54,761 nt of DNA from a virus (taxonomy: Duplodnaviria > Caudoviricetes). The position numbers and the translations under genes were made by a program. This document shows positions 3,930 to 10,671 of the stretch, piece after piece (position 1 is the first letter of the stretch; every line of letters starts with the position of its first letter). The DNA lies in IMG/VR virus record IMGVR_UViG_3300016478_000067, positions 1 through 54,761 of that record; one strand, given 5' to 3'. The notes under the pieces were generated by a model. The model was not told the origin of the DNA, did no database searches, and saw only the letters and a list, made by a program, of their open reading frames with translations.

Positions 3930-4232
3930 TCAGTCAGTCAGCCCGGTCTCTTCTTCCATGTACTCGACGTTCCCGATGCGGTCGGCGGCGAGCATGGCAT
4001 ATCCGGAGATATCGACCCAGTGGTCGAGGATGTTCGGGTTGCCATTGACGATGCGCGAGATCTTGTGCAGGATCATGTCCAGCGCCTCGCGTTGTGCCAT
4101 GCTCAGGCACCCATAGTTGGGGTGTTCCATGACATGGTGTTTCAGCGCTCGGGACAGCGCTGCTTGGCCAGTGAAATCGCCGTAGGCGGCACCGCGTTCA
4201 GCCAGCACGGCACGTACATCATCCCTGCTCAT
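3930..4232 (-). CDS. DUF6378-like protein (associated with nucleotide-modification loci)
   Basis: ERGAAYGDF...HKISRIVNGNP...DHWVDISGYA motif pattern. Confidence 0.7.
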   Translation of the reverse strand: MSRDDVRAVLAERGAAYGDFTGQAALSRALKHHVMEHPNYGCLSMAQREALDMILHKISRIVNGNPNILDHWVDISGYAMLAADRIGNVEYMEEETGLTD

Positions 4233-4407
4233 CTTGGATCTCCTTTTCTGGCGACTCTTCGCCGGGTTTCACGAATTGGTGCTCCTCCTCCTTGGTAGAG
4301 AAGCGATAATTGCAGCTCTCACACTCTCGACGACGCCGAATGCGGTTGTCCACATTATTGTAGGTGCTGGTAACGCAGGTGTCGCCGCCGCACTTTGGAC
4401 ACTTCAT
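4219..4407 (-). CDS. NrdR N-terminal-like zinc ribbon protein
   Basis: MKCPKCG...IRRRRECESCNYRFSTKE matches the NrdR Zn-ribbon; no ATP-cone. Confidence 0.75.
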   Translation of the reverse strand: MKCPKCGGDTCVTSTYNNVDNRIRRRRECESCNYRFSTKEEEHQFVKPGEESPEKEIQDEQG

Positions 4408-4943
4408 ACGCCCAGCTCCTCACACATGGTCCGTACTGCCTTGCGGATATGCAGATCGGGGTTAGAATCGCTGTACCGGTCAACCGAATCAGTAAGCTGA
4501 CGGCGCAACAGCGGAAGGACCTCCTCACGGGCGTGACGGCCGACACCGTAGTTATCCAAGAAATGGATAGCCTCGATCAGATCGGCCAGCTTCACCACCA
4601 TCTCAGCTACCGTCCCACGTACCGTGCCCGCCACCTCGTAATAATTGCGATCGTAGCTGGCTTCGGCCTTCACCAAGTCGGCACCGCAGCCGCGTAGGGT
4701 CTCCTTATACGGGGTTGGTGTGTCGCCGGTGAACACCTCGATCGAGTCGTGCATCAGCGCCCAGTAGACCACCTGTAGGTGGCGGTCAGGGTGTAGTACC
4801 CCATTCCAGCCGATGTCGTGTGCCAGCCGGGTGGCCAGAATCGTGACGTTAAATGAGTGCTCCGCTATCGTCTGCGGGCGGGACGTATCTACAATCCCCC
4901 AGCGCTTGACATGCGACATCCGCATAAGTTCGGAAATTTTCAT
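4404..4943 (-). CDS. datZ: HD-domain dATP triphosphohydrolase DatZ
   Basis: VKRW...QTIAEHS...LMHDSIEVFTGDTPTPYK...VKLADLIEA (YfbR/DatZ HD motifs); next to mazZ and purZ. Confidence 0.88.
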   Translation of the reverse strand: MKISELMRMSHVKRWGIVDTSRPQTIAEHSFNVTILATRLAHDIGWNGVLHPDRHLQVVYWALMHDSIEVFTGDTPTPYKETLRGCGADLVKAEASYDRNYYEVAGTVRGTVAEMVVKLADLIEAIHFLDNYGVGRHAREEVLPLLRRQLTDSVDRYSDSNPDLHIRKAVRTMCEELGV

Positions 4944-4944
4944 A

Positions 4945-5253
4945 TTACTCCCCTATGTGTTGCATTGTTCCGGTGGCGGGATCCCGCTGCCACCGGCGGT
5001 GTTCGTTTACGGCCATCTTATCGAGCACGGCCCGCTCGATGTCGATACCATATTGGCTGGCCAGATCGAGTACCAAGATAACTACGTCAGCGTACTCATC
5101 CGGGGTCACCCTATCCTCGATCAGCTCTTCCACCTCGATCAGCATCTTGCGCAAGATCTCATCCGCAGTGCGGTCAGGAAACATCCTGTCCGCCCAAGCG
5201 GTGATCCCCACTTGAAATGCCTTCAGTGTGCAGTCAGTGGGGTCGGTCATCAC
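4945..5253 (-). CDS. mazZ: MazG-like (d)GTP diphosphohydrolase MazZ
   Basis: AWADRMFP...EVEEL...DEYADVVIL...KMAVNEHRRW MazG-fold motifs; ATGA-coupled to purZ. Confidence 0.82.
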   Translation of the reverse strand: MMTDPTDCTLKAFQVGITAWADRMFPDRTADEILRKMLIEVEELIEDRVTPDEYADVVILVLDLASQYGIDIERAVLDKMAVNEHRRWQRDPATGTMQHIGE

Positions 5254-6290
5254 AGGTCCAGCGGATCTTCGTTACGGGACCATTCACGGATGTCCGAGTC
5301 ATCCGGGCCGGTGCAGATGTAGTCCACCGTGTACCCGGTAGTCTCGATCTGCCGCATAATCCCTTCAAGCTGCTCCGGTGTGCAGTAGTCAGCGAAGGTC
5401 AGCACCACACGATTGTCCAGGGCATCGGATGCGCAGTGGAACATGGCGTGACTGAACTGATGCAGCGAGAATTCGAACACGCGGCGTGGGAGCTTCGTCA
5501 CGGTGGTGAGCTCGGGCTTCTGGCCTAGTTCCTCCCAGGTGAGCTCGCGCTGGCCCTCGTAGGCCGGACCGCTGGAGCCGTCTCGGTTGTTCACTCTGAT
5601 CGGGAATGTGCGCATGACGTTCCAGACGGTGATATCACTAGCCCATTTGAAGGGCAGGCCACAATCGGCGGCGATCTGCCACGGGGTCACGTCACGCGAG
5701 GTGCAGTACGGCCAATCGCCGTGGTAGAGCGACAGCCCGAAACCTTGGGCACCCTCGACCAGAACCTTCTGTGCCAACTGGAGCTGACGGTCGTACTCGA
5801 ATCGATCGACCACGTACTGTTCCAGTTCCGTGCCAGCGAATCCAAGTCGTGCGATGGCCTTCGAGTCGGGGTCACGCAGGATGCGATCAATCATCGCTTG
5901 ACCCACGCCCTTGGCGGTAGAACCCATCTTGGTCTGTCCCCGGTCTTTCTCCCGTTGCGCGTGCTCATCCGTGACCACCGCTGCATTCTCGTGGATCATC
6001 AGCCGCTGGCCGGGCCGCAGATACTCACGGATTTCGCGCAGCAGAGTGTCGGCATGGATCAGGGCACCGGGGCCGATCATCACGTTCTTCACAGTGGGGC
6101 AGGTGACACCGACGGGCAGCTGCTGCACCATCATCGAGATGCCGCGTTCGCGGTCGTTGTAGGTGTGGCCCGCCTGGGTGCCATAGGCGCACACCACGGT
6201 GTCGTATTGCTTGCGCTTGGCCAGCCAGCCAGTAACGCCCCCTTTCCCGCAGCTGCCCCACATGCCGTCCATCGTCATATCGATCATCAT
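5250..6290 (-). CDS. purZ: N6-succino-2-amino-deoxyadenylate synthase (PurZ/PurZ0 family)
   Basis: PurA fold with WGSCGKG (Ser replacing the catalytic Asp of GDEGKG), EGAQG, PYCTSRD, RTFPIRV, TTVTKLPRRV. Confidence 0.93.
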   Translation of the reverse strand: MMIDMTMDGMWGSCGKGGVTGWLAKRKQYDTVVCAYGTQAGHTYNDRERGISMMVQQLPVGVTCPTVKNVMIGPGALIHADTLLREIREYLRPGQRLMIHENAAVVTDEHAQREKDRGQTKMGSTAKGVGQAMIDRILRDPDSKAIARLGFAGTELEQYVVDRFEYDRQLQLAQKVLVEGAQGFGLSLYHGDWPYCTSRDVTPWQIAADCGLPFKWASDITVWNVMRTFPIRVNNRDGSSGPAYEGQRELTWEELGQKPELTTVTKLPRRVFEFSLHQFSHAMFHCASDALDNRVVLTFADYCTPEQLEGIMRQIETTGYTVDYICTGPDDSDIREWSRNEDPLDL

Positions 6291-6304: not shown

Positions 6305-6511
6305 TCAGTTTTCGTCTATCGACAGTTTCAAATCTTCACGCACGCTGGACAGTCTGTCCAGGATGTCGTGCATAGTTTCCACCTCAGTCGGGGTGTACTT
6401 GGAGCTGCGGACGCATTTGGACAGGACGGACCGGATAAGGTCCATCTCCCATAGATGCAGATCCAGCGGGGCCATTCCGTTACCATCAATCATCGCTCTA
6501 TCCTCTATCAA
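6305..6511 (-). CDS. Hypothetical protein upstream of purZ
   Basis: ORF in operon orientation; start uncertain. Confidence 0.55.
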   Translation of the reverse strand: MIEDRAMIDGNGMAPLDLHLWEMDLIRSVLSKCVRSSKYTPTEVETMHDILDRLSSVREDLKLSIDEN

Positions 6512-6796: not shown

Positions 6797-8623
6797 TTAG
6801 TCTTTCGCCTCCATCCAGTTGGCACCAACGCCCCAGTCGCAGGTAATAGGGACGCGCAGCTTTATCGGGTTGATCACCCCATCAAATGTGGTGTACAGCT
6901 TTGCGATCGGCTCGGGATCTGCACCCTTCTCCAGCGATATCCCGATTTCGTCGTGCACCGACAGCAGCAATCGCCCCGCCTCAGTCTCCTTCAAATGTCG
7001 GTGCAAAAGAATGAGCTGCTGCTTCATGCAGTCAGCGGATGTGGCCTGGTAAATTAGCCCTGACGCCTTGTGCACGAATTGACCGCCGGGGAACCTTAGC
7101 CTGCGCCCCATGATGGAGCGTACGAACCCGCGTTGCTTAGCGATAGCTGACGCCTTCCCTGCCATATCTTTCATGCCAGGATTGGCGGAGTGGTATTTCT
7201 CGAATATCGCCATAGCTTCCGGCCCCGCCTTCAGGTAAACATTGCCGCCTGGCCCTTTCTCCTCGGTAAACGGCAGTCCGCACTCCTGCGCCAGCCGGCC
7301 GGAGCCCATGTTGAAGGCAAGCCCGAGGTTGATAGCCTTACTGGACGGACCGCCGGCGTACTGCGCATTTCGTGGGATGCCGGTCATATCCGAGACCAGC
7401 TGGTGGAAGTCCAGATTCGGATCTTTGCGGTAGGCATCCAGAATCGCCGGCACCTGGCCGTAATGGTTGGCCACCCGGAATTCAAACTGGCTCCAGTCCA
7501 TGCCCAGCCACTGGGCACCCTCATCCGGCAGGAAAATCGGGCGCACGATGGATTTGATAGCTTTATCCCGTGATGGGATCTGCTGCAGCGCCGGTGCCGT
7601 GATACTGAGGCGGCCGGTTCCTGTTCCCGCCTCCGCGTCGTTTTTGGTCTGGTTGAAATTGCAATGAATCAGGCCGTCTTCTTGGTGCCCCAGGATGTGC
7701 CCAGACAGAAAGGTGTCCCTAGTCTTGAGCATCTTGCGCAAGTCCAGGATCATCTTCGCCGCCGGGTGTCGCATGCGGCGCAGGCAATCCGCGTTGATCG
7801 ACGGTTTGCCGCCCTCGGTGGATTCGGCTATTGTTCCGTCCACCAACCGCCACAGGCCCTCCTCGTCTTTCTTCGGCTGGAATAGCTTCGCGATCGAGCC
7901 AGAAGGGTTCGGGTTGACCTCGAAGCCCGCCATCCTATTGAGATTCCGCTGAGTGTCCTCCGCGCGCTCCGTGATGTCTCGGACGGCCTGCTCGGCCCGT
8001 TCTACGTCCACACGGAGCCCGTACTCCTCCATCTCGATCAGAATCGGCAGCAGCTGCAGCTCCAGCGAGTGCACCTGGGCCAGATCCGCCATGCCCATGG
8101 CCTCTTGGGCTAGATACAGCGCCTGAGTCGCCAGCGTGTCCTGTTTGGCATACCTACCGACTATCGATGGCGGTGCCCGGTGTAGGTTCGGCATCTGCGC
8201 CGACCGAGTAGGACGGCCCCCGAACAGTGCTGCCAGCTCGGGGTAGATCTCCGAGTCCTTGGCGATGCCGGCGTACTTGCGTGCTAAGAAATCCAGTTCG
8301 TAGGTGGGCTCGTGCTCGTTTAGCAGCGCTGCACGGATCATCGTGCAGTCGATGCGGTCCGGCGGCAGTACGATCCCCGACTCGCGCAGCATGTGGTAGT
8401 CGAATTTTAGGTGGTGCCCGACCCACTTCCCCACAGCCCCATATCGGATTACGTCCTGCAGCCACAGAATCACGCCCGGTGTCTCTCGGACATCCCAGTA
8501 ATACGTTGACTTGTCCGGAAGCGTGATGGAAATACCGAACACCCTATCCTTCCAGAAGTGCAGGCCGGTGGTCTCGGTATCGATCACCAGGTATGGCACC
8601 CGGTCTATTCGGGGAAAATTCAT
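6797..8623 (-). CDS. dpoZ: Family A DNA polymerase with 3'-5' exonuclease, DpoZ-type
   Basis: Exo DTETTG; TGRLS; motif A DWSQFEFR; motif B KAINLGLAFNMG; KASGLIYQ; motif C SVHDE; clustered with purZ. Confidence 0.88.
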   Translation of the reverse strand: MNFPRIDRVPYLVIDTETTGLHFWKDRVFGISITLPDKSTYYWDVRETPGVILWLQDVIRYGAVGKWVGHHLKFDYHMLRESGIVLPPDRIDCTMIRAALLNEHEPTYELDFLARKYAGIAKDSEIYPELAALFGGRPTRSAQMPNLHRAPPSIVGRYAKQDTLATQALYLAQEAMGMADLAQVHSLELQLLPILIEMEEYGLRVDVERAEQAVRDITERAEDTQRNLNRMAGFEVNPNPSGSIAKLFQPKKDEEGLWRLVDGTIAESTEGGKPSINADCLRRMRHPAAKMILDLRKMLKTRDTFLSGHILGHQEDGLIHCNFNQTKNDAEAGTGTGRLSITAPALQQIPSRDKAIKSIVRPIFLPDEGAQWLGMDWSQFEFRVANHYGQVPAILDAYRKDPNLDFHQLVSDMTGIPRNAQYAGGPSSKAINLGLAFNMGSGRLAQECGLPFTEEKGPGGNVYLKAGPEAMAIFEKYHSANPGMKDMAGKASAIAKQRGFVRSIMGRRLRFPGGQFVHKASGLIYQATSADCMKQQLILLHRHLKETEAGRLLLSVHDEIGISLEKGADPEPIAKLYTTFDGVINPIKLRVPITCDWGVGANWMEAKD

Positions 8624-8956: not shown

Positions 8957-10372
8957 TCAGATTTTAAAGCCATTCGGACCATCGACAATATCGAGGACCT
9001 TCCTGGCGCGGGTCATCCCGACGTAGAACGTGCGGATCTCATCGTCGGGGAATTTCATTGCGGTCTCGGCCACGCGACTGGTCATGTCAGTCATCAGTAT
9101 CACCCGGTCCGCTTCGTGGCCTTTGCTTGCATGAATGGTGGACAGTCGGACATCGGGTTTTGCGTCCAGATCCGTGTCGATGTAGAAATCCAGCATGTTG
9201 ATCGGGACCTCCAGTCTAACATGGAATGGGCGAGCTGTTAGTTCCGACCATTTCCCATCGGTCACTAGACGTTTTGATGCAGCGTTGCACGCATGCAACA
9301 GCGTGTTCTTGGCCGATTCAGTGATTTTCTCACCACGGGCCAGCGCGTTGAACGTTCGGATAGCCGTCGCCCACCGGTTCTGGTACATCCCCGGCCTGCC
9401 GGACTCCCGCAGATACGGAATCCGCCCCTCGATCAGCGACTTCTCAACATCCCTCAATACTGAGTGCGTCCGTCCCAGAAGTAGCGTATCCTGCCCCCTC
9501 CGGATCGTAACCGAGTCGATACCGCCGAATATGCGGACCAGTCCCACATCACCGGTGCAAGTGAACACCTTATCGACGCGACGGCTGACGCGACGGATGA
9601 GGGACTGTGATTTTTTGTGCACTGCAACAGGTAGTCGGTGCGATAGTGATAGTACCTCGCTATCGCCATCATGCCGTTCGATGAATTCAGACATGCCATG
9701 CGGGTCGGCACCGGACCACGTGTAGATGGCCTGGTCATCATCCCCGGCCACTGTGACTGCTTTCGCATTCTCAGTGATTCGCTCGATGACCCGCCACTGA
9801 AGAGGTGATAGGTCCTGTGCTTCGTCAATAAAGAAGATTTCAGCCGGGGAACTGGCGCCGCCTTTGGCGACGGCGTCGAGCATGTCGGTGAAGTCCCAAT
9901 ATCCGAAAACAGATTTCCAGTCAGCGTACGCATGGCGGAACATATTGAATTCGGCGCGGGTTCCGGGGCGGTCGGATAGGTCATACGCCTCATCCGGGTC
10001 CGTGTAGGTGTTGCGCGAACGGTTGATAATGTCGAGATACGCATCGCCATCTGCCCTTTCTTCGTCGTCTTCCGGTGATTTACCAATGATCGGAACGCCG
10101 ACCTTGGCCGCAAATTCCCGCAGCTTTGCACTATCTACCACCTGTGGCTGCCGCAGGCCCATCAAACGGAAGCACATGGAATGGATCGTGCACACGTTGT
10201 CGGACCTGCGGATGCCGAGGCGCGATAATGCCTCACTGGCGGCCGCCCGTGTGAAGGACAGGAACGCGATGCCGTCTGGGGAAACCCCCAGGTCTTTAGC
10301 CTCCTGCACTCGGCGTAACAATTCCGTAGTCTTGCCAGTGCCCGGTGGCCCAAAAATAGCTTTTGTAGCCAT
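8957..10372 (-). CDS. Superfamily 1 (UvrD/Rep-like) DNA helicase
   Basis: GPPGTGKT, DEAQD, GDDDQAIY, STIHASKGHE, YVGMTRAR. Confidence 0.92.
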   Translation of the reverse strand: MATKAIFGPPGTGKTTELLRRVQEAKDLGVSPDGIAFLSFTRAAASEALSRLGIRRSDNVCTIHSMCFRLMGLRQPQVVDSAKLREFAAKVGVPIIGKSPEDDEERADGDAYLDIINRSRNTYTDPDEAYDLSDRPGTRAEFNMFRHAYADWKSVFGYWDFTDMLDAVAKGGASSPAEIFFIDEAQDLSPLQWRVIERITENAKAVTVAGDDDQAIYTWSGADPHGMSEFIERHDGDSEVLSLSHRLPVAVHKKSQSLIRRVSRRVDKVFTCTGDVGLVRIFGGIDSVTIRRGQDTLLLGRTHSVLRDVEKSLIEGRIPYLRESGRPGMYQNRWATAIRTFNALARGEKITESAKNTLLHACNAASKRLVTDGKWSELTARPFHVRLEVPINMLDFYIDTDLDAKPDVRLSTIHASKGHEADRVILMTDMTSRVAETAMKFPDDEIRTFYVGMTRARKVLDIVDGPNGFKI

Positions 10373-10419
10373 TCTGATGCCCTCTATCAAATCTATACCG
10401 GCCCCGAGGGGCCGGGTCA

Positions 10420-10671
10420 TCACGCCGCAATATTCAGGGCGCTATCTTCGTAGGCCAGAGCTTTCTGACGCAGCGGCTCCAGCTTCTTTCGGATCTCATT
10501 GAACCCATCAACAGATTCTTGGTTGTCGGCGTCCTTGGCAAGATATTCCATGTATGTGGATACCCGCTCGAACAGATAGTTGATGGTGTTCTTGTGTGCG
10601 ATCTGCTCGCGCAGCCTACGCTGCTCAACAGTCTCAGCCCAACCCTCATCGCCCACGGTTCGCATTTTCAT
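10420..10671 (-). CDS. Hypothetical protein
   Basis: GGAGAA RBS; ORF. Confidence 0.6.
   Translation of the reverse strand: MKMRTVGDEGWAETVEQRRLREQIAHKNTINYLFERVSTYMEYLAKDADNQESVDGFNEIRKKLEPLRQKALAYEDSALNIAA

Follow-up and report, generated by a model that had tools for sequence, protein, structure and literature searches.

The committed step in the making of Z-genomes (2-aminoadenine DNA) is catalysed by PurZ. In PurA of Escherichia coli, Asp333 pairs with N1 and N2 of guanine, and the Asn mutant prefers xanthosine triphosphate (XTP); the phage enzyme PurZ0 is said to have been described as a GTP user by Tong and colleagues in 2023. The published picture, in the literature drawn on here, is of an ATP/dATP-using PurZ accompanied by DatZ and MazZ, and of a GTP-using PurZ0 found in actinophages together with DutZ and DmtZ, the switch to ATP being explained as an adaptation that aids dATP depletion. 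A citing preprint places the transition to ATP/dATP after PurZ0 (bioRxiv 2025.10.22.683976), and phage sequences at NCBI have been divided into two monophyletic groups, PurZ0 and PurZ, that differ in donor preference (PMC12884076); the wording given there for the donors of PurZ0 and PurZ, 'ATP and GTP, respectively', looks inverted. The window analysed here is a stretch of 54,761 nucleotides that makes up the whole of IMG/VR virus record IMGVR_UViG_3300016478_000067 (Duplodnaviria; Caudoviricetes), rated complete by CheckV. Its minus strand carries, at 5250..6290, a purZ-clade gene for a succino-amino-deoxyadenylate synthase homologue of 346 amino acids (aa; P0001; PF00709, E = 3.7e-29) in which the two residues that read the base of the nucleoside triphosphate (NTP), hereafter the dyad, are Thr and Asp (T..D). 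On balance we favour the reading that P0001 is a true PurZ that has returned to GTP as its phosphate donor and probably takes dGTP too.

In S-2L PurZ the 6-amino group of adenine is bonded by N305 and Q308, through their side-chain oxygens, and by G335, through its backbone; the amide of Q308 (N297 in phiVC8) conflicts with a 2-amino group, and Q308 is on a list of residues that are unique to PurZ while being conserved in PurA (PMC8342488). In phiVC8 PurZ, F295 and Y298 have a stabilising effect on the adenine ring (bioRxiv 2025.10.22.683976).

Base dyad and identity of the PurZ homologue

The motif T298-F299-A300-D301 is encoded at 5388..5399 on the minus strand (reverse complement ACC TTC GCT GAC) and follows a predicted strand at residues 293-298. 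Phmmer aligned 'vvltfady' of P0001 without gaps on 'evflnfcny' of phiVC8 and 'evflnfaqy' of S-2L, and two MAFFT alignments (A1 and A2) placed TFAD on NFCN, NFAQ and NFAN of PurZ, on SMAD, SFAD, TMLD and TMVD of PurZ0, and on TKLD of Salmonella PurA; pairwise BLASTP to Archimedes PurZ0 likewise set TFAD on the S/T..D motif. In S-2L, NFAQ begins with N305 and ends with Q308, so T298 and D301 occupy the base-reading positions. S-2L G335, the adenine N6 contact, aligns with G328 of P0001, and both ring-stacking residues are retained as F299 and Y302. The original prediction, made from the sequence of the window, had given the coordinates and description of TFAD exactly and had placed it inside the NTP-base motif, with which the alignments to S-2L, phiVC8, PurZ0 and Salmonella PurA agree, the same positions contacting adenine in S-2L.

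The signatures on the dGMP side are those of PurZ. The P-loop, G12-S13-C14-G15-K16-G17 (6240..6257, minus strand), has Ser at the position of PurA Asp13 and Cys where ATP-type PurZ has Thr; the corresponding Ser of phiVC8 PurZ is S14, whose role is described in bioRxiv 2025.10.22.683976. PIRV (aa 230-233; 5592..5603, minus strand), of PurZ/PurZ0 type, replaces the STRV of PurA in the MAFFT alignments. TTVTKLPRR (aa 262-270; 5481..5507, minus strand), the PurZ-type aspartate/dGMP loop, is identical to that of S-2L, in which the loop T273-T276 has been described (PMC8342488), and PurA has GATTGRRRR here. The Ser of GSCGKG, the Ile of PIRV and the Leu of TTVTKLPRR had been predicted as PurZ-like; all three motifs are present as described, PIRV and TTVTKLPRR aligning with S-2L and phiVC8. 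A second base-pocket loop, C326-T327-G328-P329-D330 (5301..5315, minus strand), follows a predicted strand at residues 324-326; it reads STGPD in PurA and G-F/W/Y-G-P in ATP-type PurZ. The hybrid pocket that had been proposed is real in its residues: the dGMP-side signatures are PurZ-like and the NTP-base dyad is like that of PurA and PurZ0.

Homology and fold point the same way as the dGMP-side signatures. Among PDB chains searched with phmmer, P0001 matched phiVC8 PurZ (E = 1.2e-63) and S-2L PurZ (6.6e-56) ahead of Pyrococcus horikoshii PurA (1.5e-30), Archimedes PurZ0 (7VF6; 3.5e-23) and E. coli PurA (~1e-16). An AlphaFold2 model built from a 20-sequence alignment reached a mean predicted local distance difference test (pLDDT) score of 90.1 and a predicted template modelling (pTM) score of 0.90, and Foldseek returned phiVC8 PurZ (6FKO) and S-2L PurZ (7ODX) as its top matches (TM 0.89 each), followed by PurZ0 7VF6 (TM 0.80) and P. 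horikoshii PurA (TM 0.77-0.79). Relative to the two crystallised PurZ enzymes (phiVC8, 6FM1/6FKO; S-2L, 7ODX), P0001 is ~40% identical over its full length and shares the P-loop Ser, PIRV, the TTVT loop, the Phe and Tyr that flank the dyad, and cluster partners in the form of DatZ, an S-2L-type MazZ and a phiVC8-type DpoZ. It differs from them in T..D (versus N..N/Q), Cys14 (versus Thr), Cys326-Thr327 (versus Gly-Phe) and four extra residues, ALDN, inserted ahead of the motif strand.

With PurZ0, P0001 shares the S/T..D dyad, Ser13 and a Thr at the T327 position (GTGP), but the two are only 31-35% identical, the PurZ0 P-loop is GSEAKG rather than GSCGKG, PurZ0 has Gln after the Asp where P0001 has Tyr, and PurZ0 forms a separate clade. 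All 98 PurZ0 genomes surveyed in PMC12884076 carry dutZ, usually with dmtZ, and a polymerase of a different group, whereas the window has no match to PF00692 or PF05014 and carries DatZ, MazZ and a phiVC8-type DpoZ. PurA belongs to the same superfamily, and its T-x-x-D motif and S/C-T-G-P-D loop are near-identical to those of P0001 (TKLD and STGPD in Salmonella); PurA, however, has the catalytic Asp13 (GDEGKG) where P0001 has Ser13, carries STRV and GATTGRRRR, acts on IMP, is ~30% identical to P0001 and, in bacteria, bears long insertions. P0001 is thus a PurZ by homology, fold, dGMP-side signatures (Ser13, TTVT(K) and PIRV), phylogeny and gene context, and not a PurZ0; what it lacks of a described PurZ is the adenine-reading N-F-x-N/Q dyad and, narrowly, a passing score on the family model considered below.

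Conservation and co-variation across the clade

To the 7 references we added 120 listed of 1282 matches and 150 listed representatives of 3266 matches, for a homologue set of 277 rows; the sampling is centred on P0001. The dyad was N..N in 169 rows, T..D in 72, S..D in 17, N..Q in 4 and M..D in 3, the rarer states being N..D (2), T..N (2), G..N (1) and N..E (1), with 5 gapped rows and 1 misaligned PurA row. Asp301 was present in all 51 rows of the P0001 clade (45 T..D, 5 S..D, 1 M..D), and the close IMG/VR relatives read L-T-F-A-D-Y without exception (14/14). The T..D dyad of P0001 is a clade-wide and recurrent trait, neither a chance reading nor the peculiarity of one phage.

Other pocket positions change with the dyad. 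In cross-tabulations of the 261 rows that contain both motifs, where the counts are not independent of relatedness, P-loop position 14 was Thr in 153 of 170 N/Q-type rows versus 16 of 90 D-type rows, the other D-type rows having Cys (32), Glu (22), Ser (12), Ala (7) or Val (1). Position 326 was Gly in 154 of 159 N/Q-type rows versus 12 of 81 D-type rows, the remainder of the latter having Cys (29), Val (20), Ser (13) or other residues. Restricting the comparison to 8 independent contrasts on well-supported branches of a 123-row IQ-TREE tree (see below), Ser/Thr298 moved with Asp301 in 6.5 of the 8 on average and never in the opposite direction (median p 0.03), and a residue other than Gly at 326 moved with Asp301 in 4.4 of 8, with ~0 opposite (median p 0.125).

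P0001 and its 97% relative (L009, P0002) have the loop C-T-G-P-D, and the rest of the clade mostly C-F/Y-G-P-D. Thr327 matches STGPD of PurA and GTGP of PurZ0 and is a second PurA-like change, private to the P0001 lineage.

Phylogenetic placement

A FastTree phylogeny was built from 262 rows, 15 of the 277 having been dropped for length (<300 or >480 aa) or a gapped motif. P0001 fell in a 51-row clade (support 96) whose sister was a 70-row clade, all N..N (joint support 99), and the PurZ0 references fell outside the PurZ clade (98). A quick IQ-TREE search on 123 rows (all references, 15 representatives of the P0001 clade, 12 of its sister clade, all representatives that are not N..N and every other one of those that are) again joined the P0001 clade to its all-N sister, with support 100. 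For a third tree of 164 rows, also from IQ-TREE, we added 41 sequences from prokaryote contigs (44 of 80 loci examined, 3 dropped for an unaligned motif) and rooted on the PurA of Salmonella and of Thermoplasmata. At the base of this tree are D-type cellular paralogues; PurZ0, grouped with DPANN-archaeal sequences, branches next, and above it comes a PurZ clade of 126 rows (99) with N-type basal branches. Inside that clade lie a 100-row node (98) and then a 30-row node (99), the latter made up of the P0001 clade (96), the N-type sister clade (98) and a single M..D row.

Parsimony that weighted both directions of change equally found 15 dyad changes on the 164-row tree, 12-13 from N to D and 2-3 from D to N. 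The path to P0001 runs from D at the root to N from the 126-row node and to D again at a 16-row node, and the two earlier trees gave the same outcome. Holding all 67 N/Q rows together as one group, which was defined after the tree had been seen, was rejected by the approximately unbiased (AU) test (difference in log-likelihood, delta lnL, 537.6; p-AU 7e-5). We conclude that the dyad has switched repeatedly within the family through a linked pair of single-base changes, and that Asp301 of the P0001 clade is probably a reversion, of which the trees hold about 12-13. The original prediction had seen P0001 as an intermediate, GTP-using or of dual specificity; its intermediate status was not supported, as P0001 is nested far within the N..N/Q PurZ clade, next to a sister clade that is all N..N, and its Asp comes out of rooted parsimony as a reversion.

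Phosphate donor

If the donor has returned to GTP, the pocket could work as follows. Within a standard DpoZ/PurZ/MazZ/DatZ cluster, P0001 would make N6-succino-2-amino-dAMP from dGMP, aspartate and an NTP. Its pocket would have reverted from the adenine-reading form (Asn...Asn/Gln, P-loop Thr and the Gly of GxGP) to a guanine-reading form whose residues, Thr298...Asp301, Cys14 and Cys326-Thr327, form a set like that of PurA and PurZ0. The carboxylate of Asp301 would pair with guanine at N1-H and at the 2-amino group, the role played by Asp333 in E. coli PurA, and its presence would also eliminate the amide that clashes with the 2-amino group in S-2L and phiVC8 PurZ; GTP would be preferred because of this pairing and because the clash is gone. 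As PurZ does not read the 2'-OH, dGTP is probably used too, and since the PurZ-type stacking residues Phe299 and Tyr302 are retained, the pocket would be a mosaic. The T..D state is fixed in a large uncultured clade and is probably a secondary reversion, one of many in the family. The homology, the pocket residues with their conservation and co-variation, the nesting in the trees and the gene context are observed directly, and both the donor specificity and the production of Z-DNA by this phage are what we infer from them.

Several points weigh against a return to GTP, or against parts of it. Specificity for the T/S..D members of the PurZ clade is deduced from residues only, and a Thr hydroxyl and a carboxylate could still accept hydrogen bonds from the 6-amino group of adenine, so that ATP use may persist. 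Gly326 persists in the 12 D-type rows noted above, and the co-variation of position 326 falls short of significance among the independent contrasts (p 0.125). In the 164-row tree, 66 of the 161 inner branches are open and the backbone is weak, in a sampling centred on P0001. The correspondence of the dyad with that of PurA also has its difficulties: phmmer against P. horikoshii PurA gave a shifted register, with PurA 'TMLD' on the upstream 'DALD' of P0001, which we judged an unreliable, weak local solution in a gapped region; hhalign of a D-type profile against Salmonella PurA aligned residues 4-234 only and did not reach the dyad; and the equivalence of TFAD with TKLD of PurA rests on alignments A1 and A2. 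On the NCBIfam model for PurZ, NF038379, P0001 scored 290.6 bits and did not pass the cut-off of 300. The model spans aa 4-286 of P0001 only and, ending at residue 286, is blind to the dyad; all five T..D-clade proteins scored (P0001, P0003, P0017, P0028 and P0043) fell at 274-291 bits, all <300, two proteins of the N-type sister clade reached 303.5 and 315.5, and phiVC8 PurZ, S-2L PurZ and Archimedes PurZ0 reached 397, 350 and 325. Finally, the adjoining MazZ, of a type reported to hydrolyse GTP, fits poorly beside a putative GTP-dependent PurZ, and compared with the N-type sister clade it has no change that would compensate.

The main alternative is that P0001 has kept to ATP/dATP, or accepts ATP and GTP equally, T..D being a tolerated form of purine binding and the repeated N/D switching a sign of weak constraint. 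The codons allow for it: Thr ACC and Asp GAC are each one nucleotide from Asn AAC, single-nucleotide steps that fit the frequent toggling, 13-15 changes, in the trees. Mixed states occur among the 277 rows (N..D 2, T..N 2, M..D 3), F299 and Y302 of PurZ type are kept, the accessory genes are unchanged between the D- and N-type sister clades, and the S-2L dyad side chains accept from the 6-amino group of adenine (PMC8342488), as Thr and Asp could likewise. We nevertheless hold this to be unlikely. Asp is invariant (51/51) in a clade that diverges to ~55% identity; the two dyad positions switch jointly and never in opposite directions, which points to selection on the joint state; and in every superfamily enzyme with a known donor, D goes with GTP and N/Q with ATP (motifs as read here; donors from PMC8342488 and, for PurA and PurZ0, as reported).

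Less probable again, and disfavoured, is that P0001 survives from between the GTP-using PurA/PurZ0 and the ATP-using PurZ, with an ancestral dyad that was never lost. PurA, the cellular Ser13 paralogues and PurZ0 are all D-type, so that the root state is D, backbone support within the PurZ clade is modest, and equal-weight parsimony could mislead if D-to-N changes were much easier than N-to-D changes. Yet each of the supported nodes of 126, 100 and 30 rows (99, 98 and 99) parts the P0001 clade from the D-type base, and their basal and flanking lineages are N-type; Fitch and Sankoff reconstructions on all three trees give N ancestors, with D only at the P0001 clade itself, and a single N..N/Q group fails the AU test. 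Identity and E-values also group P0001 with PurZ rather than PurZ0, and the record is without dUTPase and nucleoside deoxyribosyltransferase, the accessories of PurZ0 type. A viral PurA-like adenylosuccinate synthetase acting on IMP and GTP, outside the Z pathway, would account for the PurA-like base dyad and the NF038379 score below the cut-off, but it is very improbable given Ser in place of the catalytic Asp13 of PurA, the PurZ-type PIRV and TTVTK loops, top PDB and fold matches that are PurZ, and a gene flanked by DpoZ (792 bits on the DpoZ model) and MazZ/DatZ.

Occurrence and implications

In a collection of deposited phages, all 210 records that matched P0001 were <60% identical to it, the best at 40-41%. 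From the 120 matches listed we chose 12 cultured PurZ-clade phages to span the organism names (phiVC8, S-2L, SH-Ab 15497, Bm1, BCSR129, vB_OspP_OH, BUCT555, PSA28, PMBT28, Kokobel2, ZP6 and K21lambda1). All 12 read N..N/Q and none T..D; five PurZ0 phages (Archimedes, Ghobes, Wayne, Keanu and Johann) and Salmonella PurA read S/T..D. For three further D-type lineages (P0161, P0176 and P0152), no phage record exceeded 46% identity. In the literature searched, of which coverage was partial so that an earlier description is possible, we found no mention of a guanine-type dyad within the PurZ clade, and the available text of the 2025 preprint 10.1101/2025.10.22.683976 does not mention GTP.

A wider picture, to which we give slightly less than even credence, is that donor choice is an evolutionary toggle rather than a one-way path from PurA through PurZ0 to PurZ. 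A dozen or so lineages, the large uncultured clade of P0001 with its complete DpoZ/MazZ/DatZ cluster among them, would have flipped to a guanine pocket after the ATP switch at the base of PurZ, by two single-base changes together with changes at positions 14 and 326, and a sizeable fraction of environmental Z-genome phages would make dZ with GTP, beside a MazZ that may itself use up (d)GTP, so that Z synthesis would be bound to the guanine pool. The D-type share is 49 of 126 PurZ-clade rows, in a biased sample. A large clade of PurZ proper with the GTP-type dyad in the ordinary PurZ gene context would weaken the one-way evolutionary story and make the donor preference of P0001 and of its two-residue mutant a testable prediction, and a GTP-driven PurZ would couple differently to nucleotide pools in engineered Z-DNA cells. 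As all five scored members of the T..D clade lie just below the NF038379 cut-off, automatic annotation would label such phages' enzymes plain adenylosuccinate synthetase, and the phages would go uncounted among Z-genome viruses.

Gene neighbourhood

Nearly all genes of the record, and all those given here, lie on the minus strand. The mazZ gene (4945..5253; 102 aa) is of MazZ-1/DUF550 type (PF04447, E = 6.5e-07), and its product is 42% identical to S-2L MazZ over 95 aa (E = 8e-21). Its start codon, GTG, shares bases with the stop codon of purZ (GTGA, 5250-5253), which suggests translational coupling. A datZ-like gene for an HD phosphohydrolase of 179 aa follows (4404..4943; PF12917, E = 2.5e-14, and PF13023), with 40% identity to phiVC8 DatZ and 36% to S-2L DatZ. 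On the other side of purZ lies dpoZ (6797..8623; 608 aa; PF00476, PF01612), whose product, an aminoadenine DNA polymerase of phiVC8 type, scores 792 bits on NF038380 phage_DpoZ_1 (cut-off 500) and is 42% identical to phiVC8 DpoZ over 627 columns. The phiVC8-like DpoZ and the MazZ that had been predicted to be paired with purZ are both supported by these matches.

Between dpoZ and purZ is an open reading frame (ORF) of 68 aa (6305..6511) with no Pfam or NCBIfam match, present among the relatives only in the 97% relative, L009. Downstream of datZ, a NrdR-like zinc-ribbon ORF (4219..4407; PF22811, E = 1.8e-10) is syntenic in 14 of 14 close relatives, and a DUF6378 ORF (3930..4232; PF19905, E = 6e-07) occurs in 13, the 14th locus stopping short of the site. 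A UvrD-like helicase gene upstream of dpoZ (8957..10423; PF00580, E = 1.7e-25) is syntenic wherever a relative's locus extends that far. The record further encodes terminase, portal, head, tail-fibre, primase and helicase genes; a tRNA scan of it found none, and the whole record has no PF00692 or PF05014 match and neither a dUTPase nor a nucleoside deoxyribosyltransferase. For the host, labels of metagenome-assembled genome bins give loose hints, Fimbriimonas in one case and Dechloromonas in another.

The cluster is conserved on both sides of the dyad change. In the 14 IMG/VR relatives (71-97% identity), all of them TFAD, the order DpoZ-PurZ-MazZ-DatZ-zinc ribbon is kept wherever the locus reaches; the N-type sister clade has NFxN in 16 of 16 loci and the DpoZ-PurZ-MazZ-DatZ order in 14, with one of the remaining loci lacking a DpoZ match and the other a DatZ match. 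Comparing the loci of the two clades, we found no accessory-gene difference between them.

S-2L MazZ is reported to hydrolyse GTP as well as dGTP, and 21 ligand and metal positions are described for it, among them D60, the 2-amino contact, and N20, the O6 contact (PMC8342488). At these positions the MazZ proteins of the D-type and N-type sister clades agree in the contacts to base and sugar and in most of those to metal: D60 and I56 are kept in both clades and N20 is replaced by Phe, the window MazZ having D63 and F25 at the D60 and N20 positions. The window MazZ has Ile39 where S-2L has the metal ligand Glu34, a site that is Glu in most relatives and often Gly, Ser or Thr in proteins of the N-type sister clade. 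The nucleotide specificity of the window MazZ may differ from that of the S-2L enzyme, to judge by these residues. We found no link between the 21 MazZ positions and the PurZ dyad in the two sister clades, and there is no sign of co-adaptation between MazZ and PurZ, because the N-type sister clade has the same MazZ type and ligand-contact residues. The competition of MazZ and PurZ for one GTP pool that had been suggested as possible for this phage has left no visible trace in the sequence.

Other homologues

Short PurA-like paralogues (~350-360 aa), whose GSEGKG puts Ser at the position of the catalytic Asp13 as in PurZ and PurZ0, occur in cellular chromosomes and metagenome-assembled genomes, including those of Sorangium cellulosum, Paenibacillus ginsengihumi, Nitrosomonas halophila, Aetokthonos, Binatia, Phycisphaerales, DPANN archaea and others (for example L133 5001-5897, L138 5001-6011, L109 2471-3463 and others of L073-L143). 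Nearly all have Asp at the last dyad position; they branch below PurZ0 and PurZ in the tree, and in all 3 genomes checked they sit beside a long PurA of canonical type (546-626 bits). Some PurZ homologues are unusually long: P0122 and P0203 (733-743 aa), P0144 (551 aa) and P0167 (462 aa). The C-terminal extension of P0167 looks like a fused MazZ/DUF550-like segment, and P0122 and P0203 match P0001 in two stretches, which suggests an insertion or a fusion.

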